DNA from: a virus
Taxonomy: Duplodnaviria; Caudoviricetes
Direction: 5' to 3' (one strand)
DNA: 62,591 bases
IMG/VR virus record: IMGVR_UViG_3300017700_000663
Span: 1 to 62,591 of that record
Positions 1 through 58,449 of the stretch are shown here, piece by piece. The notes below the pieces were generated by a model that did not search any database, was not told the origin of the DNA, and saw only the letters and a list, made by a program, of their open reading frames with translations. Positions within the stretch are counted from its first letter, which is position 1. Every line of letters starts with the position of its first letter. A program made the position numbers and the translations under genes.

Positions 1-119
1 GGCGCGGCCCAGCTGCAGAACAACAACGCCAACCAGCTGCTGCGCAGCGTGGGCTACAGCTTCGACGACAACATCACCGAGCCGCTGGTGCGCCAGTATT
101 ACGAATGGCTGCTGCTGGA
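1..119. repeat. 119-bp terminal direct repeat (copy 1); circular-assembly overlap
   Basis: Identical to 62473-62591; lies within the portal reading frame, which continues across the junction. Confidence 0.97.
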
Positions 120-789
120 CCCTGACGTGCCTGACGAGGAGAAGGGCGATTTCAATATCAACGCCCACGGCTCCGTCGCGCTGGTCGAGCGCGCCATTCA
201 GGACCAGACCATCGCCCAGATGTCGGCGCTGGTGCTGGATCCGCGATATGGCTTCGACCCCAAGAAGTGGGGCACGCAGTACGTCAAGTCGAAGCGCATG
301 GCCCCCGAGGACTTCCAGTACACCAAGGAAGAGCAGGAGAAGCTGGACAGCCAGCCGCCGCCGAAGGCCCCGGCCGTCGAGGTCGCGGAGATCCGCGCCG
401 CCGTGACGCGCGAGGAGCTGGCAAAGGACGACGAAAACCAAGACCTCGATCGCAAGCTGGAAAACGATCACCTGCTGGCCGAGAAGTCGGTCGAGCTCGA
501 GCTCCTGCGCAGCCGCGAGCGGCTGGCGATGCTGGACTATGCCAACCGCAACCAGATGAACCTCGATCAGGTCAAGAAGGATCTGGCCAAGACCACGATG
601 ACACTGCAGACGCAGGAGCGCCTTGCCGGCAGCCGCGCGCGGGTGGACCTGCAGAAGAACAGCAAGGGTGACGGCAAGAACGGCGGCAAGAAGCCCGCCC
701 CCGCTGCGCCGCGCCCCGCGCCGCAGGTTGCGCGCCCGTTGGCCGAGCCGCCGCAGCGCGCGCCTGATGGGGAGGCATTCACGCAATGA
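1..789 (+). CDS. Portal protein, C-terminal part (continues from 60721 across the circular junction; about 846 aa total)
   Basis: Frame 1 is open from base 1 and in frame with the ORF starting at 60721; coiled-coil C-terminal barrel as in P22-like portals; sits before scaffold and capsid. Confidence 0.85.
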   Translation, partial: GAAQLQNNNANQLLRSVGYSFDDNITEPLVRQYYEWLLLDPDVPDEEKGDFNINAHGSVALVERAIQDQTIAQMSALVLDPRYGFDPKKWGTQYVKSKRMAPEDFQYTKEEQEKLDSQPPPKAPAVEVAEIRAAVTREELAKDDENQDLDRKLENDHLLAEKSVELELLRSRERLAMLDYANRNQMNLDQVKKDLAKTTMTLQTQERLAGSRARVDLQKNSKGDGKNGGKKPAPAAPRPAPQVARPLAEPPQRAPDGEAFTQ

Positions 790-1995: not shown

Positions 1996-3069
1996 ATGGC
2001 TATTCAGTCTTTTGCCATGACCCCGGGCCGGATCAACAAGTTCAAGGGCCAGATCCTGAAGCACGCTGTGCCGAAGGAAGTCCTTGGGCGCACCGGCCGT
2101 CAGGTCAAGTTCCCCAAGAACAGCAGCGATACCTATGTCGCCCGCCGCTGGCTGCCCTATGGCGCGACGGCCACCAATGCCAACACCCAGAACCAGTTCT
2201 TCCAGAACGGCACTGGCGATCGCGGCAATGCCATGGTCATCGCCCACCAGACGCAGGAAGGCGTGACGTCCGCGCCTGACAGCATCGTGCCGATCGACAT
2301 CACGGTCGTCATGCAGCAGTACGACTGCCTGTATGGCTTCACCGACAAGACCTTCGATCTGTACGAAGACGACATCCCCAAGCAGATGATCGAGCAGACC
2401 GGCGAGCGCGTTTCGCTGGTCAACGAAATGATCATCTACGGGGCGCTGCGCGCCTGCACCAACCAGTACTTCGGTGGCACCGGCACCACGATCGCTACCG
2501 TCAATGGTGCGATCAGCCTCAATCTGGTGCGCCGCATCGCGAAGAACCTGCAGGCCAACCACGCCATGCCGGTCAACAAGATGCTGAAGGCCTCGGCGGA
2601 TTACGACACCTCCGCCGTGTCCGACGGTTACACCGTCTACTGCCACACCGATCTGGAGCCGGATATTCGCGACATGCCGGGCTTCACGCCGATCGAGAAG
2701 TACGCATCGGGCACTCCGATGCCGAACGAGATCGGCAAGGTGGAGCGCTTCCGCTTCATCACCTCGCCGGACCTGCCGTCGTTGCAGGATGCCGGCGCGG
2801 CGATCGGTGTCACCGGCCTCTACTCCACCACGGGCGTCAACGTCGACGTCTATCCGTTCATCGTCGCTGCGCAGGATGCGTGGAGCCAGATCGCGGTTCG
2901 CGGCATCGAAAGCCTCGACCCGACCTACATCCCGACCGGCGAAAAGACGAAGTCGGATCCGCATGGCCAGCGCGGCTACTGCGGCACCATCTGGTGGAAG
3001 TCGGTCATGATCGAAAATCAGGGCTGGATGGCTGTTGGCTTCGTGGGCGTTCGCACGCTGACCAACTAA
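1996..3069 (+). CDS. Major capsid protein, N4-gp56-like family
   Basis: AAGGAG RBS; 357 aa; motifs EGVT, HTDLEPDIRD, NEIGKVERFRFI, SDPHGQRG characteristic of N4-gp56-type capsids. Confidence 0.92.
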   Translation: MAIQSFAMTPGRINKFKGQILKHAVPKEVLGRTGRQVKFPKNSSDTYVARRWLPYGATATNANTQNQFFQNGTGDRGNAMVIAHQTQEGVTSAPDSIVPIDITVVMQQYDCLYGFTDKTFDLYEDDIPKQMIEQTGERVSLVNEMIIYGALRACTNQYFGGTGTTIATVNGAISLNLVRRIAKNLQANHAMPVNKMLKASADYDTSAVSDGYTVYCHTDLEPDIRDMPGFTPIEKYASGTPMPNEIGKVERFRFITSPDLPSLQDAGAAIGVTGLYSTTGVNVDVYPFIVAAQDAWSQIAVRGIESLDPTYIPTGEKTKSDPHGQRGYCGTIWWKSVMIENQGWMAVGFVGVRTLTN

Positions 3070-4931: not shown

Positions 4932-5648
4932 ATGAACAAGCTGCAGCTCGTACAGAAACTCGGCGAAAAGTGTGGTGTCTCCGGCACCATCACGACCACC
5001 GTTGGGCTTTCTGGCGAGTGGCTGCGCCTCTCGAATTGGATCGACGAGGCGTGGAATGAGCTGCAGTCCGAGCATGATGACTGGAATTGGATGCGCAGCA
5101 GCGTGCTGCTCGGCGGCGGCGCATCCTTTCCCACCGTTTCAGGCACCGCCGTCTATCGGCTCGGTGCGGCCGCCGCCGGCTATGTCGGTGTGCTGCCGGA
5201 CAATTTCGGCAAGTGGGTGCGGGACGGCATCCGCTGCATGACCACCAGCGTCGGCTTTCAGGACGAACAGATCATCGACTGGGTCGATTTCGACTACTGG
5301 CGCGACGTCTATGCGATCGGCGCGAACCGCAGCGTCACGACGCGCCCCATGGCCTATAGCGAGGGCCCGAACAAGGAGCTCTGCCTCGGGCCGTACCCCA
5401 ACGGCGACTACACCATCACGGCCGACTATTTCTGGGCCCCGCTGATCATGGAAGATGACGATGATGTCCCGGTCGGCCTGCAGGTGAAGTGGCACATGGC
5501 GATCGTCTACAAGGGCATGATGAAGTACGCGGCCTATGAGGCCGCGCCCGAGGTCATGGTCGATGGCGAAAACGGCTATGGCAAGATGTTCGCCGAGATG
5601 GAAGTCGGCTACGCGCCGGAGATGACGTCGGGGAGCGCGCTGGCATGA
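4932..5648 (+). CDS. Head-tail adaptor (tail tubular protein A-like)
   Basis: 238 aa; helical N-terminus (WIDEAWNELQ..WNW), LGPYPNGDYTI, and HMAIVYKGM; podovirus position. Confidence 0.75.
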   Translation: MNKLQLVQKLGEKCGVSGTITTTVGLSGEWLRLSNWIDEAWNELQSEHDDWNWMRSSVLLGGGASFPTVSGTAVYRLGAAAAGYVGVLPDNFGKWVRDGIRCMTTSVGFQDEQIIDWVDFDYWRDVYAIGANRSVTTRPMAYSEGPNKELCLGPYPNGDYTITADYFWAPLIMEDDDDVPVGLQVKWHMAIVYKGMMKYAAYEAAPEVMVDGENGYGKMFAEMEVGYAPEMTSGSALA

Positions 5649-12672: not shown

Positions 12673-13244
12673 GCAAGAAGAACCGGCCGAAAAAGCCGCT
12701 GATTTCCAGCAACACGCTGCTGGCATCGGCCGAACAGAAAATCCAGTCCTCGCTCACCCCGGGCGCGCGCGAGGATTATCTCAAGATCGTCGTCAGCGGT
12801 CTGCGCGCCCTGCTCGACAAGGGTGAAAACGGGCTTCTGGCCCAGATGAATGGCAGCAAGGATCCGATCGCGGACTGCGCGCGCGGCGCGGTAAATCTCG
12901 TGGCCCTCCTCTACAAGGAGTCGCGCGGGACCATGCCTGAGCGGGCGATCCCGCCGGCGGCGATGACGCTGATGCTGCACGGGCTGGATTTCGCCGAGAA
13001 GGCGAAGATCACGGTGATCGACCGCGAAGCGCTGATCAAGGCGACGCGAATTTTCACCAATTACCTGTTCCAGACGATGAAGATCTCGCCGTCCATGCTG
13101 CACCACGCGGCCGGCAAGGTGCATGACATCATGAAGGATCCGGCGTCGGCCGAGGCCGTGCGCCGCAAGGCCGGCGTCGTGGCCGATCCGCGCGCCAGCA
13201 AGCCAACCGAAGTCGTCGAGGAGGATCCTGTCGATGCAGTTTAA
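12669..13244 (+). CDS. Hypothetical ejection-module protein
   Basis: ATGA-coupled ORF; helical. Confidence 0.65.
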   Translation: MSKKNRPKKPLISSNTLLASAEQKIQSSLTPGAREDYLKIVVSGLRALLDKGENGLLAQMNGSKDPIADCARGAVNLVALLYKESRGTMPERAIPPAAMTLMLHGLDFAEKAKITVIDREALIKATRIFTNYLFQTMKISPSMLHHAAGKVHDIMKDPASAEAVRRKAGVVADPRASKPTEVVEEDPVDAV

Positions 13245-13947
13245 TATCGGCAATGGCCTGTCGGCCATGGGCGGCGCGATCGAGAAGACCGCCGGCGCGG
13301 CCGCGCTCGAGATGCAGAGGTCCGAGCTGGATATGCAGAAAAATGAGCTGGCGAGCATGCTGGCCGAAGGTCGCGAAACCCGTGGGCGCGAACAGCAGGG
13401 TCTGATTAACGCGGCAGCGGCTGAAGAGGCCGGGAAGCGCAGCCGGGAAGAGTTGATGATCCGCGAGGGGGGTGCCGATCGACGCCTCGCCACCAGCGAG
13501 GCTGGCGATACCGAGCGCGCGCGCATCAATGAGCGTGGTGCCAATGCGCGCCACAGCTCCAGCGAAGCGGCGGCCGATAGCCGTCTGGACAAGCAGCTGA
13601 AGGCCTCGGCAGATGCTGCGCGCAAGATTGCAGACACCGCCGAGAAAAAGCGCATTCTGGAAAGCGCGATCGATGCCTCGACCACGACCGAGGAACGCAA
13701 GGTTCTGGTGGACGGCGTCGAAACCGTGAAGATGGTGAAGACCTTCAACCCCAAGAAGGCGGCGGGCATCTTGCGCGACACTGGACACCCGGATCTGGCG
13801 AATCCGCTGGACCCGAAAAAGCTGGTGAACAAGACCGTGAAACCAAATGTCGACCCGCCGAAATTCACAGAAGGCCAGATCGTCAGCCAAGGTGGCGTGC
13901 AGTACAAGTACAACAAGGGCAATTTCGTCCCCCTCACCACTCCGTAA
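13234..13947 (+). CDS. Putative internal virion protein
   Basis: Gly-rich N-terminus plus charged coiled coil; GGAGG RBS. Confidence 0.6.
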   Translation: MQFNIGNGLSAMGGAIEKTAGAAALEMQRSELDMQKNELASMLAEGRETRGREQQGLINAAAAEEAGKRSREELMIREGGADRRLATSEAGDTERARINERGANARHSSSEAAADSRLDKQLKASADAARKIADTAEKKRILESAIDASTTTEERKVLVDGVETVKMVKTFNPKKAAGILRDTGHPDLANPLDPKKLVNKTVKPNVDPPKFTEGQIVSQGGVQYKYNKGNFVPLTTP

Positions 13948-13959
13948 ATCGGACCATAA

Positions 13960-16900
13960 ATGGCCACTCCGTCTTTCGATCCGTCGAAGCCCTTCGAGGT
14001 CGTCGAGATGTCGTCGCGCGACACCGCGCCGGCCTTTGACGTGTCGAAACCTTTTGAGGTGGTGGCGGATCCGAGCCGTCCCGGCCTGATCAATTCCATG
14101 ATGCGTCAGAACGATGCGAACATGCTGGAGGAGACCAGCGCCGCGCCCGTTAATGAATACATCGGGAAGTCGGCCGAGCTTGGCGTGCGCAGCGCTCTGG
14201 GTGCCGGTCTCGGCATCGCGGCCGCGATATATAACGGCATCTTCGGTGGCACGTCTGACGAGGATCTGGCGATTCTCAGTGGCCCCAAGGGCGACGGCTC
14301 GCTGTCGGCCGAGGATGTCAAGCGCTTCAAGGGCATCAACCCCGGCAGCTATCTGGAAAAGGGGTCGAAGGACCAGTTCGCGGCTGGCGACGACGCGATG
14401 AAAAATCTGTCGGTCGGCGCGCGGAAATATGCCGACAAGGAATACCTGACGCTCGACCCCGAGAAGTCGGCGCTGCTGTCGCCCACGCGCCTGATCGGTG
14501 ACGTGCTTGGCAGCCTGCCGTCCACTGCCCTGCTGGCCATCACCGCCCGCTTCGGCGGCACCGCCGCGACCACGGCGCGCACCGAGGCGCTGGCCGCCGG
14601 CGCGACGGAAGCGGTGGCCAACAAGGCGGCGGTGGCGGCCGCGACCAAGGTCATGACCCGGGCCGGCGCGGCGGGTGAAGGCGCTTTGGGTTACGAGATG
14701 CAGTACGACCAGACCCGCCGTCAGGTGCTGGATCTGCCGCAGGACAAGATCGAAAAGTCGGCCGAATATCAGGGCCTGATCGAAGACGGCTACACCCCGG
14801 AAAAGGCCCGGGAGCTGCTCGCCATGCGCGCCGGTAATCTGGCCGGCTTCACCGCCGCGATCGTCGACGCCGGCACCAACCTCGCCTCCGGGCCCATTCT
14901 GGGCAAGATCATCGGCGAAGGCGGCGGCATGATCTCCCGCACCGCCCGCGCCGGCGGCACCGAGGCGGCGCAGGAAGCCGTCCAGAGCGGCGGCGAACAG
15001 GCGGGCGGCAATCTGGCCCTGCAGCGCGCCGACCCGTCGCAGGAGCTGGGCGAGGGCGTGGCCGAGGCGGCGGCGCAGGGCGCGGCGGTCGGCGGCCTCA
15101 CCGGCGGCGCGATCGGTCTGGCCAGTGGCCAGAACGGCCTGATCAACGATGTAACCCCGAATATGGACGAACGCCGGCGCGTCGACGATTACATCGAGCA
15201 CCGCGCCAACGAGACCAGCGGCCAGATGGGCGAAATCCCGGCCCCTGCGTCATCCCCAGCGGCCACGGCTGCCATCCCGGCCATCTTGGAGGCACCGACG
15301 GCCGACGCGGCGATCGAGGCCGCCATGGCGGCTGTCAGCGGCCCTGCGGTCGACATCGATGCCATTGTCGACGAGACGATCGGCGCGCAGGAGCGGGCCA
15401 CGGTCGAGGAGCAGCAGGCGGCGCTGGTGGAATTTGGGTCACGCCTTGGCCAGCTGGAGCCGACGGAAGGTGACCCCAATACCTTCACCTTTACCCGGCC
15501 CGTCGCCGGCGGCGAGCCCGTCACCGGCACCCTAAAGCTCTGGGATCCGGCCGACGCGGCCGAGGGCCCGGCCGGCGGCACGCTGCCGACCATCTCGCCC
15601 GAGGTCGTGGCCGCCCAGCGTGACGTCTATGGCAAGGCCGGTTTCGACGTCGTTTATTTTCAGGATGACCCCAATCTGCCGGACGGCGCGGCCGACCCGG
15701 CGCAGCCGAACGTCATTTTCCTGTCCAACAACCCAAGCCGCAACGTGCTGCAGGTCGGCCAGCACGAGATCACCCACCTGCTCGATGACGTGAAAACGCC
15801 GGACGGCCGGAGCCTCGGCGACCTGCTGTCGGAGCAGATCACCACCGGCATCACCAACGAGGGCGTGGCCCACGCCTTCAAGATCTTCGGCGACGAGGCC
15901 CCCGATCGCAGCCAGTTCCCCGCCACTCCCGAGGGGCAGGCGGCGCACGCCGACGCGGTGCGCGATCACCTGATCAAGGAGCTGGGCGCGGACATCGGCG
16001 GCGAGGCCCCGAAATTCCAGACGTGGATCCCGCGCGTGATGGAGGCGATTGAGACTCGGTATGGTCGCGGCGTCGTCACCGAGGTGATGAATAAATTCCT
16101 GAATGGCCTGCGGGAGGCCATGGTCAGGATGCAGACCTTCTTCTCCGGCGGCGAGCGCTCCAACACCCTGTCCCAGAATTGGGTGTCGAACCTCGACGAG
16201 ATCCACGACACGCTGGCCCAGATGAATGCCGTCCGGTACGGCAGCGCGGTCCAGCGCGAGCAGGCCAAGCTGTCGAAGATGAAGGACACGGCCGCGCGCG
16301 ATCGTCTCGCCGCCGGCGAGGCCGTGGTCGCCGAGGCTTCGGCCGCGCCGATCGCGGGCAAGCCCGCGCCGGCCGCTGGGTACAAGGAAGCCCGCACCAA
16401 GGCCCAGACGCTGCGCCGCTGGCTCGGCGAGCTGGACGTCAAGCGCCGCACCGATGCCGCCGCCAGCGAGCCGGTGAAGATCCTGCGCCAGCAGGAGGCC
16501 ACCATGCTGAAGAAGGTCGGCGGCGTCGAAAGCAAAATGACCAAGGTGGGCGCGGAACGCCTCGCGGCCGTGCGCGCCGAGATCGAGGACCGCCTGAACC
16601 CCAAGGGCGACAGCCCCGACATGGCGCGCGTGCGCGAGGCGATGGTGCGCGAGCATGCGCGGATGGCCGAAGCGACGGCGGTGACGAAAGAGGCGGCCGC
16701 GATGCCCCGGGCCGCGCGCCCCGCCCCCACTCCGAAGGCCGAGGCCGCGCCCGCCGTCGAGCCGGTTAAGGCCGAAGCGCCGAAGCCGGCATCGAAGGAG
16801 ACCGGCGAGCCGACCGACGCCGATCGCTTCGTCGCCAATCAGGTGGCGCAGGACACTGGCGGTAACCCGAAATTCTCGCCCAAGGTTGCGGATCTGTCAG

Positions 16901-19900
16901 ATCCCACCGAGCCGAACGGCAATACGCGCCGGGCCCGCGAAGTCGAGATCGACGGCGCGACGATCAGCTATTCCATGCACCCGTCGCAGGACGGCATGTT
17001 CGTCGAGGTCAACGCCGTCAGCGTCGAGCCCCGCCAGCGCCGCAAGGGCCGCGCCCGCAAGGCGATGGATAAATTCCTCGCCCAGACCGACGCTGCCGGC
17101 CTGAAGACCTTCCTGACGGCCGAGCCCATGGGCCAAGGTGGCGCGCCAAAGTCCGCACTGGAGAAATTCTACAAGTCTCTCGGCTTCACGCCCAATCGCG
17201 GCCGCGCGCGTGATTTTGGCACTCGCGCTGCGCTGGTGCGTGAGGCGAAGGTCGCCGCCAACCCCCAGAAGGCTGACCAGACTGACACCCCAGCCTTCAA
17301 AAAGTGGTTTCGCGACAGCGTAGTCGTCGATGGCAATAAAAAACCGATGGTGGTTTATCACGGCACCCCAGACGACTTCACGGAATTTGAACCGGGAGAC
17401 GGCTGGTATGGTCGCGGCATCTATTTCACCGACAATGCGGAGTATGCCGGGGAGTTCGCGACCGAGAATGCCGAAGATGGCGAAACTGGTGCGCGGACAG
17501 TCCCCGCATTCCTCAGCTTGCAGCGCCCATATATTTTCCGCGAAAGGCTGAATGACACGGCATCGAACGTCCAGCTGATGCACGAGTTGGGATTTTCAGA
17601 TGCGAAAATCAATCGCTCTTTTGAGACGGGGGAGGATCTAATCCGCCCAGCGCTGGAGCGTATGGGCCATGACGGCATCGTTGTCCTGTCTGCGGAAGGC
17701 CGAAACGAATATATCGCCTTTGAGCCAGAGCAGATTAAATCCTCCACCGGCAACGTTGGAACTTTTGATGCTCAAAATCCCGACATCCGCTTCAGCCCCA
17801 AGGCCAAACCGCAGACCAAGACCAAGGCCTTCAAGGATTGGTTTGGCAACAGCAAGGTGGTGGATGTCGCCGGCAAGCCGCTGGTGGTCTACCACGGCAC
17901 CGTCTTTGACATCGACACCTTCGATCCGCAGCGCCGCGATTCTGGTCGCGGTCGCGGCGGCAAGGTGAGGCCTGCAATCTACTTCACCGCGAACAAGGAC
18001 GACGCCAACTGGTACGCAACTTGGGGTGAGAATAAAGAGCTTTTCGCCCAAGAGCTGGAGGCGGCAAAGAACCGCCCTGCTGACATCGTGGATTGGGGCG
18101 GTGGTTACAAATATAAGATGTCGCCGTTTTCAATGGCGACGGAAGCTACCTATGTGCGGGATCCTGATGGTGGCACTGGCGCAAACAGCGGTGCCAACGT
18201 CACGCCAGTTTTTCTGAAGGCGGAAAATCCGCTCATTGTCGACATGAAGGGTCGACCCGGCTTCGGTCAGGGCCACATTCGTCGCGCTCTCGCCGCCGGC
18301 AACGACGGCGTAATCCTGAGAAATTCCCGCACCAATCAGGATACGGAGCCGTCTGACCATTTTGTCGTCTTCAAGTCGGAGCAGGTGAAGTCCGCGATCG
18401 GCAACAGCGGTGCGTTCGACCCCAAGGACAAGCGCATCCAATTTTCACCGAAGCAGCGCGAGACGGATGAATTTCGCCGCTGGTTCTCCGGCAGCAAGAT
18501 CACCGACAGAGATGGCAATCCTGTCATCCTGTATCACGCGACGCCTGAAGATTTCGACGCCTTCAAGCCCGGCGGCAAGGATCCTGAGTGGAGCGGCCCT
18601 GCCATCTGGCTCAGTCCGTATCGTGACAGCCAGCCGGCTGCGCACAATACCGGCGGCTATCAGGGCCAGTTCAAGGACGGCACCAACGTCATCCCGGTGT
18701 ACGCCGCGATCAAGAACCCACTCTTCATCGACAATCGCCAGATGTTGGACTGGTCGCGCGAGACGTTCGCAGGCGGCAGCAGCCAGTTCCCGCTGGCGTT
18801 TGATGCCAAGACGCGCGACGCGCTGATCGCCGAGGGTTACGACGGCATCGTGTATGCTGGCCCGCAGGTCTATAATAATTCCGCCAAGGAGTATGGCGAT
18901 GTCGGTGTTGGCGAGCAGCCGAAGCGCGAGGAGGAGGTCGTTGCTCTCTTTGCCAACCAGCTGAAGTCCGCGATCAGCAACACGGGAGGGTTTTCCCGCG
19001 AGGACGACCGCATCCTCTTCAGCCCGAAGCAGACGAAAACCAAGGCTTTCAAGGAGTGGTTTGCGGACAGCAAGGTTGTCGACAGCAAGGAAAATCCGCT
19101 GATCGTCTATCACGGCACCACCGCCGACTTCGACGCCTTCAATCGTGAGCGCGGCAACATCGAGAGCGACTGGGGCGCGGGCTTCTATTTCACCAACGAG
19201 CGCGACGATGTGTCGGAGAATTATGCCGGCATGGGCCCGGATCTGACGAACAAGGTCCAGCGCGAGGCGGAGCGCATCGCCAGCGAGACCGACCGGGAAT
19301 ACAATGACCCAGAAGTCGTCGCCGAGGCGCGCGCCAAGTATGCCGTCCACGAAGGCGCGACCATCCCCGCCTATCTCAGCATCCAGAACCCCGTCATCGT
19401 CGGTGGCAAGGGCGAGACCTATTTCGACTACGAAGAGAATTACAATGAAGAGCTGGACGAATTTGGAGAGCCGACCGGGTCGCTGGTCGATCTGGTAACG
19501 GCCCTGCGTGCCGCGTCGGAAAGCCATGGCGACGTCGACATCGAGGACGTTGTCGGCCAGCTCTTCGAGGCCGGTATGGATGGCGGCCTTTCGGCATCTC
19601 AGGCCGAGGACATCATGCGCAAGAATGATGGGCTGATTTACGCCACGGATCTCGAGCGCGGTGACCTGTCTGGCCACGAGCTGGTGCGTCAGGCCTTCGA
19701 GGCTATGGGCTTCGACGGCATCATCGATCGCCGCGCCAACCAGAAATTCGGCAGCGAGAAGGATCCCAAGACCGGACAGAAGATGGCCGGCATGAAGCCG
19801 GGTACTGTCCACTACATCGCCTTTGCCCCGGAGCAGGTGAAATCGGCCATTGGAAATAGCGGCGCATTCTCCAAGGAGGATTCGCGCATCCAGTTTTCGC

Positions 19901-22689
19901 CCAAGATCTCCAATGGCCCGTTCTATTCCGCCCTGACGCGCGCCGTCGAAGGTGCGAAGACCGAGAAGGCGACGCCGGGGCAGTGGATGGGCACCATCAA
20001 GAACACGCCCGGCGTGAAGGCCGAAGAAATTGAATGGTCTGGCGTCGATCAGTTCCTGAATAAGCACGCTAAGACCGTCACCAAGGCTGACCTGCTCGAC
20101 CACCTACGCGAAAACGAGGTCGAGGTGCGCGAGGTAATGAAGCGCGCCGAGGGGGAGTACGATCGCGACATCATGCAGGGGCAGCTTGCTTCCGAAAGAC
20201 TGTCCGAGCTGCAAAACAAGGACGAAGACGATCTGACGCCGTCCGAAGAGCGCCTGATGGTCTGGCTGATGGATCACCAAGATGCGTCCGACTCTGGATA
20301 CCTCACTCGCGCATACGACATCTGGCTCGATGACCACCGGCACTTGCCGCGCATCGACCCGGACGATTTGGCGTTTCAGCTTATCGAGGCGAGGGATGGG
20401 GAAAAGCGTGTCGGCCCGGAGATCGATGAAGAGATTTCGTGGCTGCAGGCTCACATTGCTGATCGGTCACTGGCAGCCGACGGGCCGGAGGATGGCGGCG
20501 TCACCAAGTACGACGATTACACGTTGCCCGGCGGTCGGAACTATCGCGAGCTGCTTTTGACGCTGCCGCCGACGATGCGGACGATCGACGAATACAAGGT
20601 CATCCGCGCCGATGGCACGACCTATGGCACCTATGATGGCAAAGAGGCCGCCGATCGCGCGGTAAAGCTGATCGATGGCGGCAGGGTCGAGCCGGGACGT
20701 GCCACCACTGTCGCCGGCGGCTTCAAATCTTCGCACTGGGCCGAGCCCAACATTCTGGCCCACATCCGCTTCGATGACCGCATGGTGCAGACTTACACGC
20801 CTGATGACGTCCAGCGCATTGGCGAGAAAATCGCTGCCGCGCTTGGCGTGAAGCCGAGCAGTATTGCCAGCGGCGCGCCGGCTGCGGCCGTCAAGAAGGG
20901 TGCCATCACCCGGCTGGAGGCCGCCCAATTTTCCCATGCCGCCGGTTTCAGGGGTGTCGACACAGCTGGCGCTGTCGAAAAGGTGCTGCACGTCGCCGAG
21001 ATCCAGAGCGACTGGCATCAGGCGGGGCGTAAGCGCGGCTATAAGCAGGAGGTCACGAAGGAGTACGCTGAAAGCCAAGGTTATTCAGTGTACCGCGCAA
21101 AAAGCAATCTGGGCACGGAATCCTATTTCTTGGACGGCCCTGATAACATTCGCAACATCCCGAACCAAGGCCACGACACCGAGGAGGGGGCGTGGGCCGA
21201 AATGCTGGCGTTCATCAAGAAGAACAACGACGTCGTCCCTGACGCCCCCTTCAAGACGACGTGGCAGGAAATGGCGATGAAGCGCGTGCTGCGCTATGCC
21301 GCTGAAAACGGCTATGACCGCGTGACGTGGGACACTGGTGCGACCAATGCCGATCGCTACGATCTCAGCAAGCAGATCGAGATGGTTTATTATTACGATA
21401 ACGGCAATGACACCTTCGACATCATCGCCGAGCCGAAGTCTGGCGGCGAAGACATCAAGAAAAACGGTCTGACAGCCAAAGATCTTGAAGACACGCTCGG
21501 AAAAGACGTTGCTCGAAAAATCATCGAAAATGAAGGGAAGCCGTCAAAATATCACGACGAAGGCTGGAGCTTCCTGAAAGGCGTCGACCTGAGAATTGGC
21601 GGCGAGGGTATGGTCGGGTTCTATGACAAGATCCTGCCGGCATTCGTCAGCAAGTATGTGAAAAAGTGGGGCGCGAAGCTCGAGCGCGGGACGGTAACCG
21701 ATCCGTATTTCGCGGCGTCTGGCGCGGCGGTCATGGCTGAAATGGGCATGCCTGTGAGCAAGCAGAAAGCCTATTGGGCGGGCCTCGACCAGAGCGAGCG
21801 TGACCGCCTTCTCGACGACTATCGCAAGCGCCACCGCGACACGGCGGTCCATTCTGTGGCCATCACGCCTGCCATGCGCGAAAGCGTCATGCAGGGCCAG
21901 CCGATGTTCAGCCCCAAGGTGCGCCCCGAAGTCCGCGAGGAGCTGGAGCGGGCGAACCCGGCCTATCGCGATATGTTCAGGTCGCCCCGTGGGGCCCCGG
22001 AGCCGCGCCAGATGCCGCCGGCGGCCGAGCCTGATGTCCAGCCTGCCCCGGCGCGCAGGACAGCGCCTGCAGCTCCTGTAGCGCCACCTGCGCCGCCGCC
22101 GGTCATCGACCCGGCCGAGGAGCCTGCCGAGACCAACAGCCCGCTGGTCGCCCCTGAGAAGCGCCCGCGCGCCCTGTCCTTGCAGTCCATTAAGGGCGAG
22201 GGCGAGCTGCGCCGGCGCGCCATCAACGGCGAGCTCTACAACGTGGCGGAGGAGCTGCCCCAGATGGAGGCGGCCGACGCGCTGGTGGCCAAGGATCTGG
22301 ACAAGGCGATCGCGATCGCCATGCGCGAGCGCCAGTCGATCCCGGGCGTGCTGCCGGAGTTCGTCTTCATGGCGGTCGAGCAGCATGCCAAGGACACCAA
22401 CAACGTCGACCTGCAGCGCCGTTTGAGCAATTCGCGCATCGCCGAGGAGGCGACCGACATGGGCCGGCGCATCGCGGCGTGGCGCAATCGCGGCGAAATC
22501 GCCCCGGTGGAGGACATGCGGCGGATCCGCGAGGCCCGGGAAGCGCGCGCGAAAGCCAAAAAGGTTGACGTCAAGAAGGAAGTCGACAAGGTGGTCGACG
22601 CTGGGCTGGCCGCATCTCGGGCCGAGGCGAAGTCGACCAAGAAGGTGTCGATCAATGAATTTGTACTTTCCATGATCTGTCCGACGTAA
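13960..22689 (+). CDS. Giant polyvalent protein (2909 aa): Ala/Gly ejection-like region, HExxH metallopeptidase, GNAT, four ART-PolyVal-like ADP-ribosyltransferase modules, large unnamed conserved domain
   Basis: HEITH at aa 602-606; V.PRQRRKGRA..LEKFYKSLGF GNAT; four copies of F..WF..S.(V/I)..(G)..P...YH(G/A)T...Q(I/V/L)KS...N.G.F; EIQSDWHQ / PDAPF / FYDKILP domain. Confidence 0.88.
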   Translation: MATPSFDPSKPFEVVEMSSRDTAPAFDVSKPFEVVADPSRPGLINSMMRQNDANMLEETSAAPVNEYIGKSAELGVRSALGAGLGIAAAIYNGIFGGTSDEDLAILSGPKGDGSLSAEDVKRFKGINPGSYLEKGSKDQFAAGDDAMKNLSVGARKYADKEYLTLDPEKSALLSPTRLIGDVLGSLPSTALLAITARFGGTAATTARTEALAAGATEAVANKAAVAAATKVMTRAGAAGEGALGYEMQYDQTRRQVLDLPQDKIEKSAEYQGLIEDGYTPEKARELLAMRAGNLAGFTAAIVDAGTNLASGPILGKIIGEGGGMISRTARAGGTEAAQEAVQSGGEQAGGNLALQRADPSQELGEGVAEAAAQGAAVGGLTGGAIGLASGQNGLINDVTPNMDERRRVDDYIEHRANETSGQMGEIPAPASSPAATAAIPAILEAPTADAAIEAAMAAVSGPAVDIDAIVDETIGAQERATVEEQQAALVEFGSRLGQLEPTEGDPNTFTFTRPVAGGEPVTGTLKLWDPADAAEGPAGGTLPTISPEVVAAQRDVYGKAGFDVVYFQDDPNLPDGAADPAQPNVIFLSNNPSRNVLQVGQHEITHLLDDVKTPDGRSLGDLLSEQITTGITNEGVAHAFKIFGDEAPDRSQFPATPEGQAAHADAVRDHLIKELGADIGGEAPKFQTWIPRVMEAIETRYGRGVVTEVMNKFLNGLREAMVRMQTFFSGGERSNTLSQNWVSNLDEIHDTLAQMNAVRYGSAVQREQAKLSKMKDTAARDRLAAGEAVVAEASAAPIAGKPAPAAGYKEARTKAQTLRRWLGELDVKRRTDAAASEPVKILRQQEATMLKKVGGVESKMTKVGAERLAAVRAEIEDRLNPKGDSPDMARVREAMVREHARMAEATAVTKEAAAMPRAARPAPTPKAEAAPAVEPVKAEAPKPASKETGEPTDADRFVANQVAQDTGGNPKFSPKVADLSDPTEPNGNTRRAREVEIDGATISYSMHPSQDGMFVEVNAVSVEPRQRRKGRARKAMDKFLAQTDAAGLKTFLTAEPMGQGGAPKSALEKFYKSLGFTPNRGRARDFGTRAALVREAKVAANPQKADQTDTPAFKKWFRDSVVVDGNKKPMVVYHGTPDDFTEFEPGDGWYGRGIYFTDNAEYAGEFATENAEDGETGARTVPAFLSLQRPYIFRERLNDTASNVQLMHELGFSDAKINRSFETGEDLIRPALERMGHDGIVVLSAEGRNEYIAFEPEQIKSSTGNVGTFDAQNPDIRFSPKAKPQTKTKAFKDWFGNSKVVDVAGKPLVVYHGTVFDIDTFDPQRRDSGRGRGGKVRPAIYFTANKDDANWYATWGENKELFAQELEAAKNRPADIVDWGGGYKYKMSPFSMATEATYVRDPDGGTGANSGANVTPVFLKAENPLIVDMKGRPGFGQGHIRRALAAGNDGVILRNSRTNQDTEPSDHFVVFKSEQVKSAIGNSGAFDPKDKRIQFSPKQRETDEFRRWFSGSKITDRDGNPVILYHATPEDFDAFKPGGKDPEWSGPAIWLSPYRDSQPAAHNTGGYQGQFKDGTNVIPVYAAIKNPLFIDNRQMLDWSRETFAGGSSQFPLAFDAKTRDALIAEGYDGIVYAGPQVYNNSAKEYGDVGVGEQPKREEEVVALFANQLKSAISNTGGFSREDDRILFSPKQTKTKAFKEWFADSKVVDSKENPLIVYHGTTADFDAFNRERGNIESDWGAGFYFTNERDDVSENYAGMGPDLTNKVQREAERIASETDREYNDPEVVAEARAKYAVHEGATIPAYLSIQNPVIVGGKGETYFDYEENYNEELDEFGEPTGSLVDLVTALRAASESHGDVDIEDVVGQLFEAGMDGGLSASQAEDIMRKNDGLIYATDLERGDLSGHELVRQAFEAMGFDGIIDRRANQKFGSEKDPKTGQKMAGMKPGTVHYIAFAPEQVKSAIGNSGAFSKEDSRIQFSPKISNGPFYSALTRAVEGAKTEKATPGQWMGTIKNTPGVKAEEIEWSGVDQFLNKHAKTVTKADLLDHLRENEVEVREVMKRAEGEYDRDIMQGQLASERLSELQNKDEDDLTPSEERLMVWLMDHQDASDSGYLTRAYDIWLDDHRHLPRIDPDDLAFQLIEARDGEKRVGPEIDEEISWLQAHIADRSLAADGPEDGGVTKYDDYTLPGGRNYRELLLTLPPTMRTIDEYKVIRADGTTYGTYDGKEAADRAVKLIDGGRVEPGRATTVAGGFKSSHWAEPNILAHIRFDDRMVQTYTPDDVQRIGEKIAAALGVKPSSIASGAPAAAVKKGAITRLEAAQFSHAAGFRGVDTAGAVEKVLHVAEIQSDWHQAGRKRGYKQEVTKEYAESQGYSVYRAKSNLGTESYFLDGPDNIRNIPNQGHDTEEGAWAEMLAFIKKNNDVVPDAPFKTTWQEMAMKRVLRYAAENGYDRVTWDTGATNADRYDLSKQIEMVYYYDNGNDTFDIIAEPKSGGEDIKKNGLTAKDLEDTLGKDVARKIIENEGKPSKYHDEGWSFLKGVDLRIGGEGMVGFYDKILPAFVSKYVKKWGAKLERGTVTDPYFAASGAAVMAEMGMPVSKQKAYWAGLDQSERDRLLDDYRKRHRDTAVHSVAITPAMRESVMQGQPMFSPKVRPEVREELERANPAYRDMFRSPRGAPEPRQMPPAAEPDVQPAPARRTAPAAPVAPPAPPPVIDPAEEPAETNSPLVAPEKRPRALSLQSIKGEGELRRRAINGELYNVAEELPQMEAADALVAKDLDKAIAIAMRERQSIPGVLPEFVFMAVEQHAKDTNNVDLQRRLSNSRIAEEATDMGRRIAAWRNRGEIAPVEDMRRIREAREARAKAKKVDVKKEVDKVVDAGLAASRAEAKSTKKVSINEFVLSMICPT

Positions 22690-22698
22690 GGGGCTGCT

Positions 22699-24507
22699 GT
22701 GGCATTTTGCATTCCGAAAAAGGACGCGGCCAAGTTCCTCGCCGCCCTCGGTTCTGGCGACATCAATGTCGCCCAGCTGATGGACATGACGTCGGCCGAG
22801 CGCCGAGCGCATTTTGCCAAGGTCGTCGGCGAGAATGTCGCCGAGGGCATGAACGCCGCCTTCGAGGCTAAGATGCTTCTGAAGGACCAGCGGCGCGGCA
22901 TGGTGACGTGGGCGCGATCGATGGCCGGACTCAAGGATAAGGTCAAGCTGGATTTCATCTCCAAGGTCAACAAACTCGAGCGCGTACTGGAGCCGGCCGA
23001 GGAGCGCGCATTCCTTGCGGATCTGGCAGCGCAGAAGCTGGGCGCGACCGTCACCCTCGATGAAGCGAAGGCGATCTCCGAGGGGGCCAAGACGGTTACC
23101 GATCTTCAGAAGGCGTGGGATCCGGCCACCCAGCAGTGGGCCAGCGAAGCCGATCGCCTGAAGTACGGCGTCGCCTATGTCACCTATCAGGAATACGTCG
23201 GCGCGCTGCTACGTGACGCCAATACCAAAAACTTCAAGGAGTGGCTGACCCAGCCGAAGCTTGGCGCTGTGCTCGACATCGCCAATTCCACCAAGGGCAT
23301 TGTGGCGTCGCTGGATAACAGCTTTTTCGGCCGTCAGGGCATCAAGGTGCTCTTCACCAATCCCGACATCTGGGCCGCCGGATTCGCGAAGTCTTTTGTC
23401 GACATCGGCAAGACGATCGGCGGCCACGATCCCATGTTGCCGCTGAAGGCAGAGATCTACAGCCGGCCAAACAGCATGAACGGCAAGTACCGCAATGGCA
23501 AATTCGCCCTCGGTCAGGACGTCGAAGAGGCCTTCCCCACGTCGATCCCCGAGCGCATCCCCGGCTTCGGCCGCCTCTACAAGGCGTCGGAAAATGCCTT
23601 TGTCGGTGGCGCGCTGCGCCTGCGCGCGGATCTGGCCGACCGGGTGATCAGGGACGCGGAGGCCTATGGCGTCGATATGTCGGTCTCCGGCCCGCAGGCC
23701 GAGGCGATCGGCGACCTGATCAATTCCATGACGGGCCGTGGCAACATCGGCCGCATGTCCGGCGAGTGGGTGAATGCCACCTTCTTCTCGATCCGATTCC
23801 TGAAGGCGAATTGGGACACGCTGACGATGCACACCTTCGGTGCCGGTATCGAGCCGGGCCCGGGGCGCGATTTCATGCGCAAGCGCGCGGCCACCAATCT
23901 CCTCAAGATCGCCACGTCCATGGCGCTGATCTACGCCATCGCCGGCATGCTCTGGCCCGACAGTGTTGAATGGGATCCACGCTCGTCGAATTTCGGCAAG
24001 ATCAAGATCGGCAACACCCGCTTCGACATCAGCGGCGGCATGGCGTCGATGGTGACGCTGGCGGCGCGCCTGATGCCGACCATGCACAACGGCAGGTGGG
24101 GCTGGTGGTCGAAGAGCGCCGTGTCCGGCCGCTGGTCGCAGCTTGGCACCGGAAAATTTGGCTCGAAGAACCCTCTGGACGTGCTCGAGGACTTCATCGA
24201 AGGGAAGGCGTCGCCTTTCGCCGGCAAGGTTCTGACCGTGCTGCGCGGCGGCCGAGACTTCACTGGCGAGCGCGTGACGCTGACTGGCGAGGCCCTGAGC
24301 CTCGTGACCCCGATCGGTTTCAGCACCATGCAGGACGCGATGAAGGATCCCAACGCCGCGCCGCTGCTCGCCGTCTACCTTCTGGACGCCATGGGCATCG
24401 GTGCCAGCACCTACAGCGGCAAAAAAGAGCCCCGGGCGCGCGAGATCTGGGACGAAGAATTTTGGAGCCAGCCCGGCCAATCAGATGATCAGCAGGTAGC
24501 GCAATGA
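22699..24507 (+). CDS. Large virion/ejection-associated protein (polyvalent-protein C-terminal-type domain)
   Basis: 602 aa, GTG start; DPRSSNFGKIKIGNTRFD motif seen in C-termini of large phage internal proteins. Confidence 0.6.
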   Translation: MAFCIPKKDAAKFLAALGSGDINVAQLMDMTSAERRAHFAKVVGENVAEGMNAAFEAKMLLKDQRRGMVTWARSMAGLKDKVKLDFISKVNKLERVLEPAEERAFLADLAAQKLGATVTLDEAKAISEGAKTVTDLQKAWDPATQQWASEADRLKYGVAYVTYQEYVGALLRDANTKNFKEWLTQPKLGAVLDIANSTKGIVASLDNSFFGRQGIKVLFTNPDIWAAGFAKSFVDIGKTIGGHDPMLPLKAEIYSRPNSMNGKYRNGKFALGQDVEEAFPTSIPERIPGFGRLYKASENAFVGGALRLRADLADRVIRDAEAYGVDMSVSGPQAEAIGDLINSMTGRGNIGRMSGEWVNATFFSIRFLKANWDTLTMHTFGAGIEPGPGRDFMRKRAATNLLKIATSMALIYAIAGMLWPDSVEWDPRSSNFGKIKIGNTRFDISGGMASMVTLAARLMPTMHNGRWGWWSKSAVSGRWSQLGTGKFGSKNPLDVLEDFIEGKASPFAGKVLTVLRGGRDFTGERVTLTGEALSLVTPIGFSTMQDAMKDPNAAPLLAVYLLDAMGIGASTYSGKKEPRAREIWDEEFWSQPGQSDDQQVAQ

Positions 24508-25037
24508 CAATCGCACTTCCGCCCGGCTATTCGTGGCTGGCAAAAGAGCCCGGCCCCAAGATGCTCGTCGAGGCCCTAAAATTGTACGGCCTTCACGAAG
24601 CACCCGGCGCGGTCAATAATCCGACGATCATGGGCTGGGCGAAAGAGCTCGGTGTCGACGGCTCATATCGCGAGGATGCGGTGCCGTGGTGCGGCCTGTT
24701 CATGGGCATCGTCGCCAAGCGCGCCGACAAGAAGCCGCCCGGTATCCTGCTGCGCGCTCTGGCGTGGGCGGATTTTGGCACCGAGGCCAAGGTGCCAATG
24801 CTGGGCGACGTCATGACATTCAAGCGTGACGGCGGCGGCCACGTCGGACTGTACGTCGGCGAAGACGACAAGGCCTTCCACATTCTGGGCGGAAACCAGT
24901 CCGATCAGGTCTGCGTGACCCGGATTGATCGCGGTCGCCTGTTCAAGGCGCGCCGGCCGGAATACAAGATCCAGCCGGCCAATGTTCGCGTCGTGAAGCT
25001 GGCAGCTACAGGCTCACTTTCCACCAACGAGGCATAG
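24504..25037 (+). CDS. Endolysin, TIGR02594 / NlpC-P60 (CHAP-like) family
   Basis: PWCGLF catalytic Cys, GHVG His, LGGNQSD motif. Confidence 0.9.
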   Translation: MTIALPPGYSWLAKEPGPKMLVEALKLYGLHEAPGAVNNPTIMGWAKELGVDGSYREDAVPWCGLFMGIVAKRADKKPPGILLRALAWADFGTEAKVPMLGDVMTFKRDGGGHVGLYVGEDDKAFHILGGNQSDQVCVTRIDRGRLFKARRPEYKIQPANVRVVKLAATGSLSTNEA

Positions 25038-56145: not shown

Positions 56146-57092
56146 TGCACATCGCGAACGACATAGAGAGGCTGGCCTTCGCGGCCTTCTGCGCAGGGTT
56201 TCACCCTGACGACGTGGCCAACGGCAACGCGGCCAAGAAGTGGCTGGAGTGGGATGAAGATCGCCGCAGCGCGTATCGAAAGGCCCGCGCCGTGCTGAAA
56301 GAGATCCAGAGCCTTGACCAGACAAGCTATGAGGCCGACTTGGTGCTCGACACCATCCTTGCCCAGCCAGACTGGCACCCGCCGGCGCGATCTCCGAAGG
56401 GGGAGGGTCGGATGGACCTACGCTACGACGAGGTCGAGGTCCACACCACCTCACCATTCGATCTGCACGCCGGCGCGCCGTCCGCGATGAACCCGATGGG
56501 CAAGGACAGACCGCTGCAGCCCGACGAGATCTGGACCGAATGGCACGGCGGCCTGTGCCCGGTGCCGCTGGCGACACTGGTCGATGTCGAGGTGGATGGT
56601 GCCGGCGCTGACGGCGGCAGCGTGAAGCACGCCCACTTCTGCATCCCGGCGGCGCACATCGTCTGGAAGAAGCGGTCACCGGACCAGAAGTTTCAGGTCA
56701 TCCGTTGGCGCAGGCATAGCCCTGACCGCGTCGAGGCGCTGGAGCCGGAGCCGGTCATCAACGACCTGATGCGCGGGATGGTAGCGACCGTGGTTCATGA
56801 CATCCGCGCCGGCGTCGACGGATGGGAGATCTGGCGCGGCGGGAACATGCCGATCGCCATCAGGTCGCCAAACCAGCACGTCGACGTCCTTTTCCGGTCT
56901 GGCTGCCTGCTGCTCGACAGGCCTGCGGGGCGTGTCCAGTGGTTGCACGACGACCATATGATGGGACCACTTCGCATCGACGACGTGGTCATGTGGCGCA
57001 TCACCGACGATGGGCAGCGCCGGGCCTGCAGGCGCGCGCTGGGCCCGGTGTCGCACAACCGGGGCTGGCCGATCCCCATCTACCCGGTGTAG
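56142..57092 (+). CDS. Hypothetical protein with two W.GG..P(V/I)...V.V...W modules
   Basis: WHGGLCPV / WRGGNMPI repeats. Confidence 0.55.
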   Translation: MMHIANDIERLAFAAFCAGFHPDDVANGNAAKKWLEWDEDRRSAYRKARAVLKEIQSLDQTSYEADLVLDTILAQPDWHPPARSPKGEGRMDLRYDEVEVHTTSPFDLHAGAPSAMNPMGKDRPLQPDEIWTEWHGGLCPVPLATLVDVEVDGAGADGGSVKHAHFCIPAAHIVWKKRSPDQKFQVIRWRRHSPDRVEALEPEPVINDLMRGMVATVVHDIRAGVDGWEIWRGGNMPIAIRSPNQHVDVLFRSGCLLLDRPAGRVQWLHDDHMMGPLRIDDVVMWRITDDGQRRACRRALGPVSHNRGWPIPIYPV

Positions 57093-57102
57093 CGTCCCCC
57101 GC

Positions 57103-58449
57103 ATGAGCGCTGTCGGGCTGGCAGAAGAACCTGCAATCATCAATCTGAGGTGCGAGCTCCCAGAAAAGCTCGGCTTCCTGATGGAGATGCACCCGTACAA
57201 GGTTGCCTATGGCGGCCGTAACGGGGCGAAGTCGACCAGCTTCGCGATCGCGCTGCTGTCGCTGGGCGCGGCGCAACCGCTGCGCATCCTGTGCGCCCGC
57301 GAGGTCCAGAAATCGATCAAGGACTCGGTCCACGCCCAGCTCAAAGACCTGATCGAGCAGATGGGCCTCGGCGATTTCTACGAGGTGCTGGACAACGAGA
57401 TCCGGGGCGCAAACGGCACCACCTTCATTTTCGCCGGCCTGCTGGCCCACAACGTCAACACGATCAAGTCCTTCGCCAACATCGACGTCTGCTGGGTCGA
57501 AGAAGGTCAGGCGGTCAGCAAGCGCAGCTGGGACATCCTGATCCCCACCATTCGCGCCGAAAACAGCGAGATCTGGGTCAGCTTCAACCCCGACATGGAC
57601 AGTGACGACACATGGAAGCGCTGGGTCGAGCACCCGCTGCCGGGCACCGTGTGCGTCAAGATCAACTGGTCGGACAATCCGTGGCACTCGGCCGGGCAGG
57701 AGGCGAAGCGCCTGCACTGCAAGATGTTCCAGCCAAAGGATTACGACAACATCTGGGAGGGCGTGCCGAAGTCGGTGGTCGAGGGCGCGATTTATGCCAC
57801 CGAGATCGTCGCTATGATCGAAGAAAAGCGTATCCGGCCAATGCCTTACGACCCGCGCTTCCCGGTCCACCGGATCTGGGACTTGGGCTGGAACGACGCC
57901 ATGGCGATCATCATGTTCCAGAAGACCAGCCCGACTTCTCTCAATCTTATCAATTACTTAGAGGACAGCTTCAAGCGCTACGACGAGCTGATCGCCGACA
58001 TGAAGGCGCTGCGGTACAATTTCGGCGAGGACTGGCTGCCGTTCGACGGTGACCAGCACAATCCCCAGACCGGCAGCAGCGCCAAAAAGCTGCTGAAGGG
58101 GCTGGGGTGCAAGGTCAGGGACATCCCGAAAACTGGCGACGAGCCGCGCATCAAGGCGGCGCGCATGCTGTTCCCCCGGATATACATCGACGACACCGAG
58201 CGCGAGCGCGACACCGGCTATCTGGGCGGAAAGCGGCTGATCGAGGTGCTGAAGCGCTACCGCCGCACCGTGCCCAAGACCACCGACGAGCCGGCAACGC
58301 CGCGCCATGACCAGTATTCCCACGGCGCGAGCGCTTTCGGCGCGCTGGCGGAGATCGCGCACCTCGTGAAGAACGATTTCGAGCAGCCGCCGCTCGAGCT
58401 GCTGCCGCCGCCGGTCAATTTCGATCCCGGGATGGGCGCACTGGGCTGA
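57103..58449 (+). CDS. terL: Terminase large subunit (PBSX-type)
   Basis: YGGRNGAKS Walker A, CAREVQKSIKDS, WVEEGQ Walker B, SFNP, WDLG, SHGASAF. Confidence 0.95.
   Translation: MSAVGLAEEPAIINLRCELPEKLGFLMEMHPYKVAYGGRNGAKSTSFAIALLSLGAAQPLRILCAREVQKSIKDSVHAQLKDLIEQMGLGDFYEVLDNEIRGANGTTFIFAGLLAHNVNTIKSFANIDVCWVEEGQAVSKRSWDILIPTIRAENSEIWVSFNPDMDSDDTWKRWVEHPLPGTVCVKINWSDNPWHSAGQEAKRLHCKMFQPKDYDNIWEGVPKSVVEGAIYATEIVAMIEEKRIRPMPYDPRFPVHRIWDLGWNDAMAIIMFQKTSPTSLNLINYLEDSFKRYDELIADMKALRYNFGEDWLPFDGDQHNPQTGSSAKKLLKGLGCKVRDIPKTGDEPRIKAARMLFPRIYIDDTERERDTGYLGGKRLIEVLKRYRRTVPKTTDEPATPRHDQYSHGASAFGALAEIAHLVKNDFEQPPLELLPPPVNFDPGMGALG

Follow-up and report, generated by a model that had tools for sequence, protein, structure and literature searches.

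Six FSPK junctions in a giant phage polyvalent protein are candidate processing sites of its own putative zincin

Polyvalent proteins were defined by Iyer, Burroughs, Anand, de Souza and Aravind in 2017, and the excerpted text of their article predicts that zincin-like metallopeptidases (MPTases) process the polypeptide (PMC5512222). They are regarded as the earliest phage products at work in an infected cell, where they would counter restriction, CRISPR and further defence systems. Here we describe P0001, a new polyvalent protein encoded by a giant open reading frame (ORF) of a virus of the Caudoviricetes (Duplodnaviria; IMG/VR record IMGVR_UViG_3300017700_000663). The window, that is the whole stretch of DNA analysed, is the complete virus record of 62,591 bp. 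P0001 carries six exact copies of the tetrapeptide FSPK, all at module boundaries. That these are processing sites read by a zincin in the protein's own conserved part, which would make P0001 a polyprotein, is a proposal we hold in about even balance.

In the MARTX toxins of bacteria, the effector modules of one chain are freed by an embedded cysteine protease, which cuts the inter-module linkers after delivery. Polymorphic toxins carry a short motif, such as VENN of CdiA or DPxGL of Rhs, at the point where variable cargo meets a constant chassis. Among phage proteins, the N-terminal domain of N4 gp50, the virion RNA polymerase (vRNAP), is described as likely membrane-spanning in the excerpted text of PMC13434306. 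For the crAss-like phages, excerpts of a preprint (bioRxiv 10.1101/2020.03.07.982082) report three virion proteins, one of them with a zincin-like protease, that are fused in some cases and "likely cleaved into individual components". Moreover, T4 Alt is given as a packaged, injected ADP-ribosyltransferase (ART) in excerpts of PMC9206674, and gp245 of SPN3US as a prohead protease with AXE sites in those of PMC10052503.

A sequence-only reading of this DNA had listed six FSPK copies, and all were recovered at those positions in the translated ORF (Table 1). FSPK is the commonest 4-mer of P0001, the runner-up having four copies, and composition predicts 0.018 copies where six are observed. Because four of them close homologous ART tails, these cannot be counted as independent, but even the two outside ART would be unexpected by themselves. 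The codons vary among the six (TTC or TTT, then TCG, AGC or TCA, then CCC or CCG), so that their identity has been kept at the protein level and not at the DNA level. A DNA-level repeat or gene conversion was ruled out as the origin of FSPK on the same ground. Six-frame translation of the 62.6-kb genome gave no [FY]S[PA][KR] in other long ORFs, and the one additional exact FSPK belongs to an 82-codon ORF that lies within the giant gene in another frame.

The copies coincide with domain boundaries, as had been claimed. Matches to the ART-PolyVal family (PF18760) stop 9 residues before each of four FSPK, the first FSPK closes an N-terminal module (N-module) common to P0004 and P0027, and the part of the chain behind the sixth aligns to the C-terminal module (C-module) of P0004, P0027 and P0038. 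The same motif follows domains unrelated to ART, in agreement with the earlier view that it is not merely part of the ART repeat. The PF18760 match covers the four ART modules with E 2.9e-78 and 261.8 bits (gathering cut-off 31.2), and five matches to this family were found in the genome. With four ART modules, a borderline GNAT and an HExxH...E motif, P0001 also has the make-up that had been read from it, and with at least two effector-type domains in one phage polypeptide it fits the definition of a polyvalent protein.

One junction was modelled with AlphaFold2 (AF2), using ART1 and its flanks (aa 1095-1300, 17242..17859; 67-row alignment). The model had a mean predicted local distance difference test score (pLDDT) of 85.9, with values above 90 in the ART1 domain. 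After the last strand of the domain the chain becomes coil; the second FSPK (model residues 184-187) lies in it, residues 185-191 have a pLDDT below 50, and the first helix of ART2 follows. At this junction FSPK is thus in a predicted flexible linker and not in a buried strand, the placement that the sequence-only reading had named as adverse. The model has the ART fold, and Foldseek gave seven PDB matches at E <= 0.001, mostly catalytic domains of tankyrase or PARP. The best of them was chain B of the cyanophage A4 pre-ejectosome (9k3a_B; E 4.2e-5, template modelling score 0.41 on the query). ART is not mentioned in the excerpted text of the A4 paper, and from this structural match an ART-like domain may sit unrecognised in the A4 ejection protein.

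A phmmer search with the putative zincin region alone (aa 448-800) found 63 proteins among 1.84 billion representatives, and in almost every case the protein has 2000-4000 aa and contains the region between residues 300 and 800. Sites of the form [FYWLMQ]SP[KR] were counted in the 49 proteins of this clade with at least 1500 aa (45 from the phmmer search, plus P0027, P0038, P0061 and P0118 from an ART-based search with P0001 aa 960-2660) and in 111 other polyvalent proteins from the latter search. The clade proteins contain 158 sites, against 8.05 expected by shuffling, and the 111 others contain 30, which corresponds to 1.21 and 0.089 sites per 1000 aa, a 13.5-fold difference. At least one site was present in 48/49 clade proteins and 25/111 others, and at least two in 44/49 and 4/111, respectively. 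Lys and Arg are equally frequent at the last position of the clade sites (79 each), HExxH precedes 156 of the 158 sites, and the wider consensus of the junction is G-G-x-P-[LQ]-F-S-P-[KR]. The motif is kept in this way although identity in the zincin region is only 27-55% among these proteins. The co-variation of linker motif and protease that had been suggested as a check was examined across relatives, and SP[KR] does co-occur with the P0001-type zincin module.

The clade sites are also module boundaries. A BLAST homology-block boundary was found within 20 aa of 146 of the 158 sites, and 24.7% of the ends and 33.7% of the starts of high-scoring segment pairs fall near sites, as compared with 5.6% of random positions. 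P0124 (1064 aa) is a chassis without cargo, in which an N-module (aligning to P0001 aa 493-895) and a C-module (aligning to P0001 aa 2720-2844) are separated by one FSPR at aa 819. By its alignment this protein shows the junction as the apparent insertion point of cassettes.

The comparison was then widened to about 195 related giant proteins in all. Of the 482 giant proteins found with aa 960-2660, the best 120 were examined, and when viral loci were searched with the four ARTs, 80 were returned, 75 of which yielded a giant ORF that could be read. ART tails follow the consensus KSAxGNxGxF, 5-7 residues and then I-x, and the tails of the "EIQSDW" domain, the large module before the sixth FSPK, follow HSxxITxAMRxxVxxGxPx. 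The residues after these two kinds of tail are alike within one protein and different between proteins, the motifs seen being FSPK, FSPR, YSLG, FSR, YSA, RSARR, KSxDR, L-x-Q and L-x-E/D. The pre-junction residue agrees between ART and EIQSDW tails in 18/21 proteins, the exceptions being P0059, P0060 and P0073; the permutation mean is 5.6, and none of 100,000 permutations reached 18. For this test, one protein and one regular-expression hit were removed as spurious, and the register of one junction was corrected by eye. After look-alike motifs were collapsed, the agreement was 13/16. In addition, the exact ART-tail 4-mer recurs elsewhere in its own protein seven times more than in other proteins.

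The four ARTs of P0001 are 30-47% identical to one another and all end in FSPK. Counterparts of the ART4 core at 50-59% identity end in ILNQ/E, ITFA/K, IRFS/R, ILFQ/G, IRRS/ARR and ILEQ/S (the slash marks the junction). On a quick maximum-likelihood tree of 55 ART4-type cores, which was poorly resolved (12/52 inner branches starred), junction class requires 18 changes, the least possible number being 4, and even if only well-supported branches are counted, at least 4 changes are needed for Q and at least 5 for Ser outside SP[KR]. The nearest relative of P0001 ART4 on this tree is an ART of the Q-type protein P0030, at 63% identity. The junction motif is thus a property of the host polypeptide and not of the cargo module.

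A second type of zincin, with the motif HExGHFxL, is accompanied by another junction: Q precedes it in 31/32 ART tails, and S does so in 10/10 ART tails of the P0001 clade. This pairing of zincin type and junction is also visible in independent viral loci (L012, L029, L034, L056, L067 and L083). In proteins of the HExGHFxL(E) type (P0005, P0006, P0009, P0024, P0028 and others), L-x-Q was seen after the EIQSDW domain as well, and several of them have such a junction immediately before the start of the zincin domain (RGxFxPxTNTIxL...LHE).

The zincin-type active site that had been read from HEITH and a downstream ELGAD was found again at aa 602 and aa 674. In an alignment anchored on HExxH, all 59 clade sequences that reach this place have the motif there, and E674 is invariant in the 58/58 sequences with a residue there. 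An AF2 model of aa 448-800 places HEITH and E674 on helices that come after a helix and strands, and the predicted order of elements agrees with the zincin core described in the excerpted text of PMC5512222.

Taken together, these features suggest that P0001 may be a virion-associated polyvalent protein built as a polyprotein, with a conserved chassis and exchangeable cargo cassettes. The chassis would consist of the N-module, with its hydrophobic N4-gp50-like N-terminus and the putative zincin (H602, E603, H606 and E674), and of the C-module. Between them would lie the cargo, namely GNAT+ART1, ART2, ART3, ART4 and the EIQSDW domain, every cassette ending in a flexible linker of the clade consensus, in P0001 always with FSPK. 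The zincin of the chassis would cut the six linkers into seven products of about 102, 34, 24, 21, 32, 75 and 28 kDa (101.8 kDa for the N-module if cut after FSPK), and the injected enzymes could then act separately in the host. Of the roles that had been suggested for FSPK, cleavage site or linker signal, that of a junction signal in a predicted flexible linker agrees with the data; from the sequence comparisons we infer the packaging and ejection of the chain, its cutting after ejection, the zincin as the enzyme and the bond that is cut.

Several points weigh against this proposal. A Pro directly after Ser would be an unusual P1' residue and is a poor fit for many proteases. The zincin assignment, drawn from the HExxH motif, the invariant Glu and the predicted order of secondary structure, is weak: the region gave no Pfam family at E up to 10, no PDB sequence relative and, with Foldseek against PDB, nothing at E <= 0.001; VIA-align in wide mode returned only helical look-alikes (bundles; Z <= 7.7); and the AF2 model had a pLDDT of only 66. 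The model searched includes long helices, which dominate a structure search. Zincin and SP[KR] are linked, in effect, within a single clade, and the two may have been inherited together with the whole chassis. For the Q type, a phylogeny-aware test could use only three independent pairs on well-supported branches, each of them either tied or as expected (p 0.25). An exact 4-mer derived from the ART tail occurs at non-ART places in only 31/153 proteins, and 27/120 relatives have uniform junction motifs although they contain no HExxH. No isolate phage of the INPHARED set carries the P0001-type zincin module. Furthermore, the vRNAP of N4 carries an HExxH domain and is reported as packaged unprocessed in excerpts of PMC5512222.

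Some further searches with the zincin region are recorded here. A prediction of a complex between a junction peptide of 38 residues (A3 residues 166-203) and the region (A2 residues 40-300) scored 0.00 without controls and is evidence neither way. In IMG/VR, the single-sequence query found no close relatives of the region and the alignment query found two loci (L102 and L103), and no close relatives were found in species-representative genomes.

The N4 precedent leads to the strongest alternative, which we regard as unlikely but worth serious attention. FSPK would then be an uncut, functional linker signal, for docking or spacing in the capsid, for a hand-over or pause in tail threading, or for chaperone binding, and P0001 would work as one 316-kDa chain. 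N4 gp50 is packaged and ejected whole according to excerpts of PMC5512222 and PMC13434306, and the N-terminal region of P0001 matches the PHROG of the N4 vRNAP: aa 177-475 match phrog_2206, "virion RNA polymerase", with E 6.6e-16, over profile positions 227-506 of 3406 only. The Pro after Ser suits an uncut linker too. However, docking does not obviously explain why the pre-junction residue switches among S, Q, E and D in step between the tails of unrelated domains, or why it tracks the type of zincin, and the patterns that end in Q or in E resemble sites of proteases that cut after these residues.

A second alternative keeps the cutting and changes the enzyme, and we consider it improbable. 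A host protease or another phage protein would cut FSPK in trans, and the HEITH domain would be employed otherwise, on host targets, on peptidoglycan or in an N4-like encapsidation. The uniform junctions of the 27 HExxH-less relatives imply that an internal zincin is not required for the junction code and that a trans-acting enzyme is possible. Seven of these relatives (P0029, P0031, P0042, P0050, P0089, P0100 and P0114) have L-x-E/D junctions such as ILRE/D and LFE/E, P0032 has nine [IL]-x-E-S junctions, with P0035 and P0098 grouped beside it, and all L-x-E/D cases fall among the relatives without HExxH. This pattern is reminiscent of prohead-protease sites cut after Glu, the site motif of the T4 prohead protease gp21 being one that is cut after Glu. 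A locus search with P0050, of the L-x-E class, returned mostly relatives of the L-x-Q class, through the common EIQSDW domain. Cutting after a short x-E motif is known for prohead proteases, as in SPN3US gp245 with its AXE sites (excerpts of PMC10052503), and the excerpted text of PMC5512222 also allows MPTase domains to be effectors on host proteins. On the other side, a six-frame search of the complete genome found no prohead protease of the Pfam families S78, S77, ClpP or S49, the other long ORFs of the phage are free of FSPK, so that there is no capsid or scaffold substrate with the same site, and SP[KR] is enriched in carriers of the P0001-type zincin module.

It is very improbable that FSPK is a functionless scar of cassette joining by recombination at a short shared sequence, kept by descent: the sites do coincide with homology-block boundaries, as such joining would give, and the clade association may have a single origin, but the differing codons (AGC against TCN for serine) leave no shared DNA sequence for recombination, and FSPK stays exact in the diverged ARTs while the flanking tail residues drift, just as the motif is kept in the diverged clade.

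If the six FSPK of P0001 are read by its own zincin, a more general proposal can be put forward, tentatively and with rather more doubt than belief. Polyvalent proteins would be true polyproteins with a programmable junction code, in which each lineage has one linker motif matched to its own protease. Zincins of the P0001 clade would read G-G-x-P-x-F-S-P-[KR] and those of the HExGHFxL clade L-x-Q, and in lineages without zincin the code would be L-x-E, with a prohead protease as its possible reader. On passing to another lineage, cargo cassettes would have their tails re-tailored to the code of the new host.

As for the other parts of P0001, the N-module is common to P0027, P0004, P0038, P0054, P0061, P0070, P0017 and P0118, and aa 175-923 match phrog_10089, "DarB-like antirestriction" (E 9.5e-12). 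The C-module aligns with the C-termini of P0027, P0004, P0038 and the cargo-less P0124. Neither the N-terminus nor the C-module gave anything meaningful in Pfam at E up to 10, and no RNA polymerase family, the mark of an N4-like vRNAP, turned up in P0001 in Pfam. The ART profile had no match in a PDB sequence search. The GNAT-like region scored 20.1 bits with PF00583 in the whole protein (cut-off 20.7), 20.8 bits when aa 976-1094 were searched alone, and 25.6 bits with PF13508, under its cut-off of 27. As had been noted in the sequence-only reading, GNAT and ART1 have no FSPK between them (16885..17802); a GNAT directly before an ART is also seen in P0028, and the pair may form one functional unit. 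About 70 of the 119 other proteins among the best 120 of the 482 relatives align to the region of the EIQSDW domain. This domain had no match in Pfam (E up to 10) or in a PDB sequence search, and ESM Atlas returned unnamed clusters only (best score 0.85). Part of it (aa 2335-2479, 20962..21396) matches positions 1829-1965 of 2564 of phrog_7348, "endolysin", with E 4.4e-10, a label that probably stems from another domain of those large proteins.

The record has a 119-bp direct repeat at both ends, and the SU10-like portal gene spans the ends; it is therefore a circularly closed assembly that was opened within the portal gene. The phage is of the podovirus type, as judged from the recognised terminase, SU10-like portal and adaptor, head and tail genes. 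The giant ORF sits in the structural module, between the SU10-like adaptor and tail genes and the lysozyme-like gene. Long ORFs antisense to the giant gene are numerous, for example 13129..15201 on the minus strand (690 aa); such ORFs are expected at 60-68% G+C and were not treated as genes.

Table 1. Features of P0001 and other recognised genes of the window (nucleotide positions of the 62,591-bp record).
Feature	Amino acids	Position	Strand	Remark
Giant ORF P0001		13960..22689	+	2909 aa, 316 kDa; phage polyvalent protein
N-module	1-975	13960..16884	+	hydrophobic N-terminal part, zincin-motif region, helical Pro/Ala-rich spacer
Candidate membrane segment	178-196	14491..14547	+	sole strongly hydrophobic 19-residue stretch (Kyte-Doolittle)
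Putative zincin core	547-685	15598..16014	+	AF2: helix, strands, HEITH helix, Glu-bearing helix
HEITH	H602, E603, H606	15763..15777	+	
E674 of ELGAD	674	15979..15981	+	candidate third zinc ligand
FSPK 1	972-975	16873..16884	+	end of N-module
GNAT-like domain	1001-1077	16960..17190	+	PF00583, borderline
ART-PolyVal 1		17332..17766	+	PF18760, 92 bits
FSPK 2	1278-1281	17791..17802	+	coil in AF2 model
ART-PolyVal 2		17863..18417	+	PF18760, matched in two pieces
FSPK 3	1495-1498	18442..18453	+	
ART-PolyVal 3		18505..18993	+	PF18760
FSPK 4	1687-1690	19018..19029	+	
ART-PolyVal 4		19084..19869	+	PF18760, long-insert subfamily
FSPK 5	1979-1982	19894..19905	+	
EIQSDW domain		19906..21906	+	671 aa, function unassigned; widespread in polyvalent proteins
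FSPK 6	2650-2653	21907..21918	+	
C-module	2654-2909	21919..22686	+	256 aa, conserved chassis end
Large terminase		57010..58449		
SU10-like portal		60721..62591, continuing at 1..789		
Major head protein		1996..3069		
SU10-like adaptor		4932..5648		
Lysozyme-like tail protein		24504..25037		
RecT			other strand	

Since 2017 it has been a matter of prediction whether a polyvalent protein works as a single giant chain or releases its enzymes, and the question is now testable through the six FSPK, the residues H602, E603, H606 and E674 and the predicted fragment sizes. If the junction code were to hold across lineages, the mature set of effectors could be read from sequence alone for thousands of uncultured phages, and a natural set of orthogonal protease/site pairs would be at hand. 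If true, the code would also explain the free swapping of cargo modules among polyvalent proteins. What is new is that the junction motif is specific to a lineage and goes together with a particular clade of embedded zincins. In the literature text searched, figures and supplements lying outside the search, no site motif for the processing of polyvalent proteins was found described; PDIRFS, PDIRYS, QIKSA, KSAIGN and DIRFSR did not occur in that text, KSATGN occurred in two papers on unrelated matters, and FSPK occurred only in unrelated contexts.

The MARTX toxins differ from P0001 in their cysteine protease with a eukaryotic cofactor and in being bacterial toxins directed against eukaryotic cells, and there is no homology between the two. 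The toxins with VENN or DPxGL carry one C-terminal cargo per protein and use other delivery systems and other motifs. The prohead-processed head proteins, which are packaged, ejected and trimmed at short motifs, and the delivery of an ART together with the DNA are parallels to the reading of P0001 as a polyprotein; unlike the putative zincin of P0001, the prohead proteases are separate, serine-type enzymes that remove N-terminal propeptides, and none was found in the P0001 genome. The virion RNA polymerase polyprotein of the crAss-like phages has other domains and no ART cargo, and the excerpted preprint gives no site motif. N4 gp50 resembles P0001 as a giant ejection protein packaged in the virion, to whose PHROG aa 177-475 of P0001 match, but unlike P0001 it carries an RNA polymerase and has its HExxH in the C-terminal domain. 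P0001 is like the polyvalent proteins of Iyer and colleagues in being a giant phage protein that combines ART, a borderline GNAT and an HExxH motif and is encoded among virion genes. The excerpted text of PMC5512222 names no cleavage-site or junction motif, and to that picture P0001 adds a lineage-specific motif and its tie to a clade of zincins.

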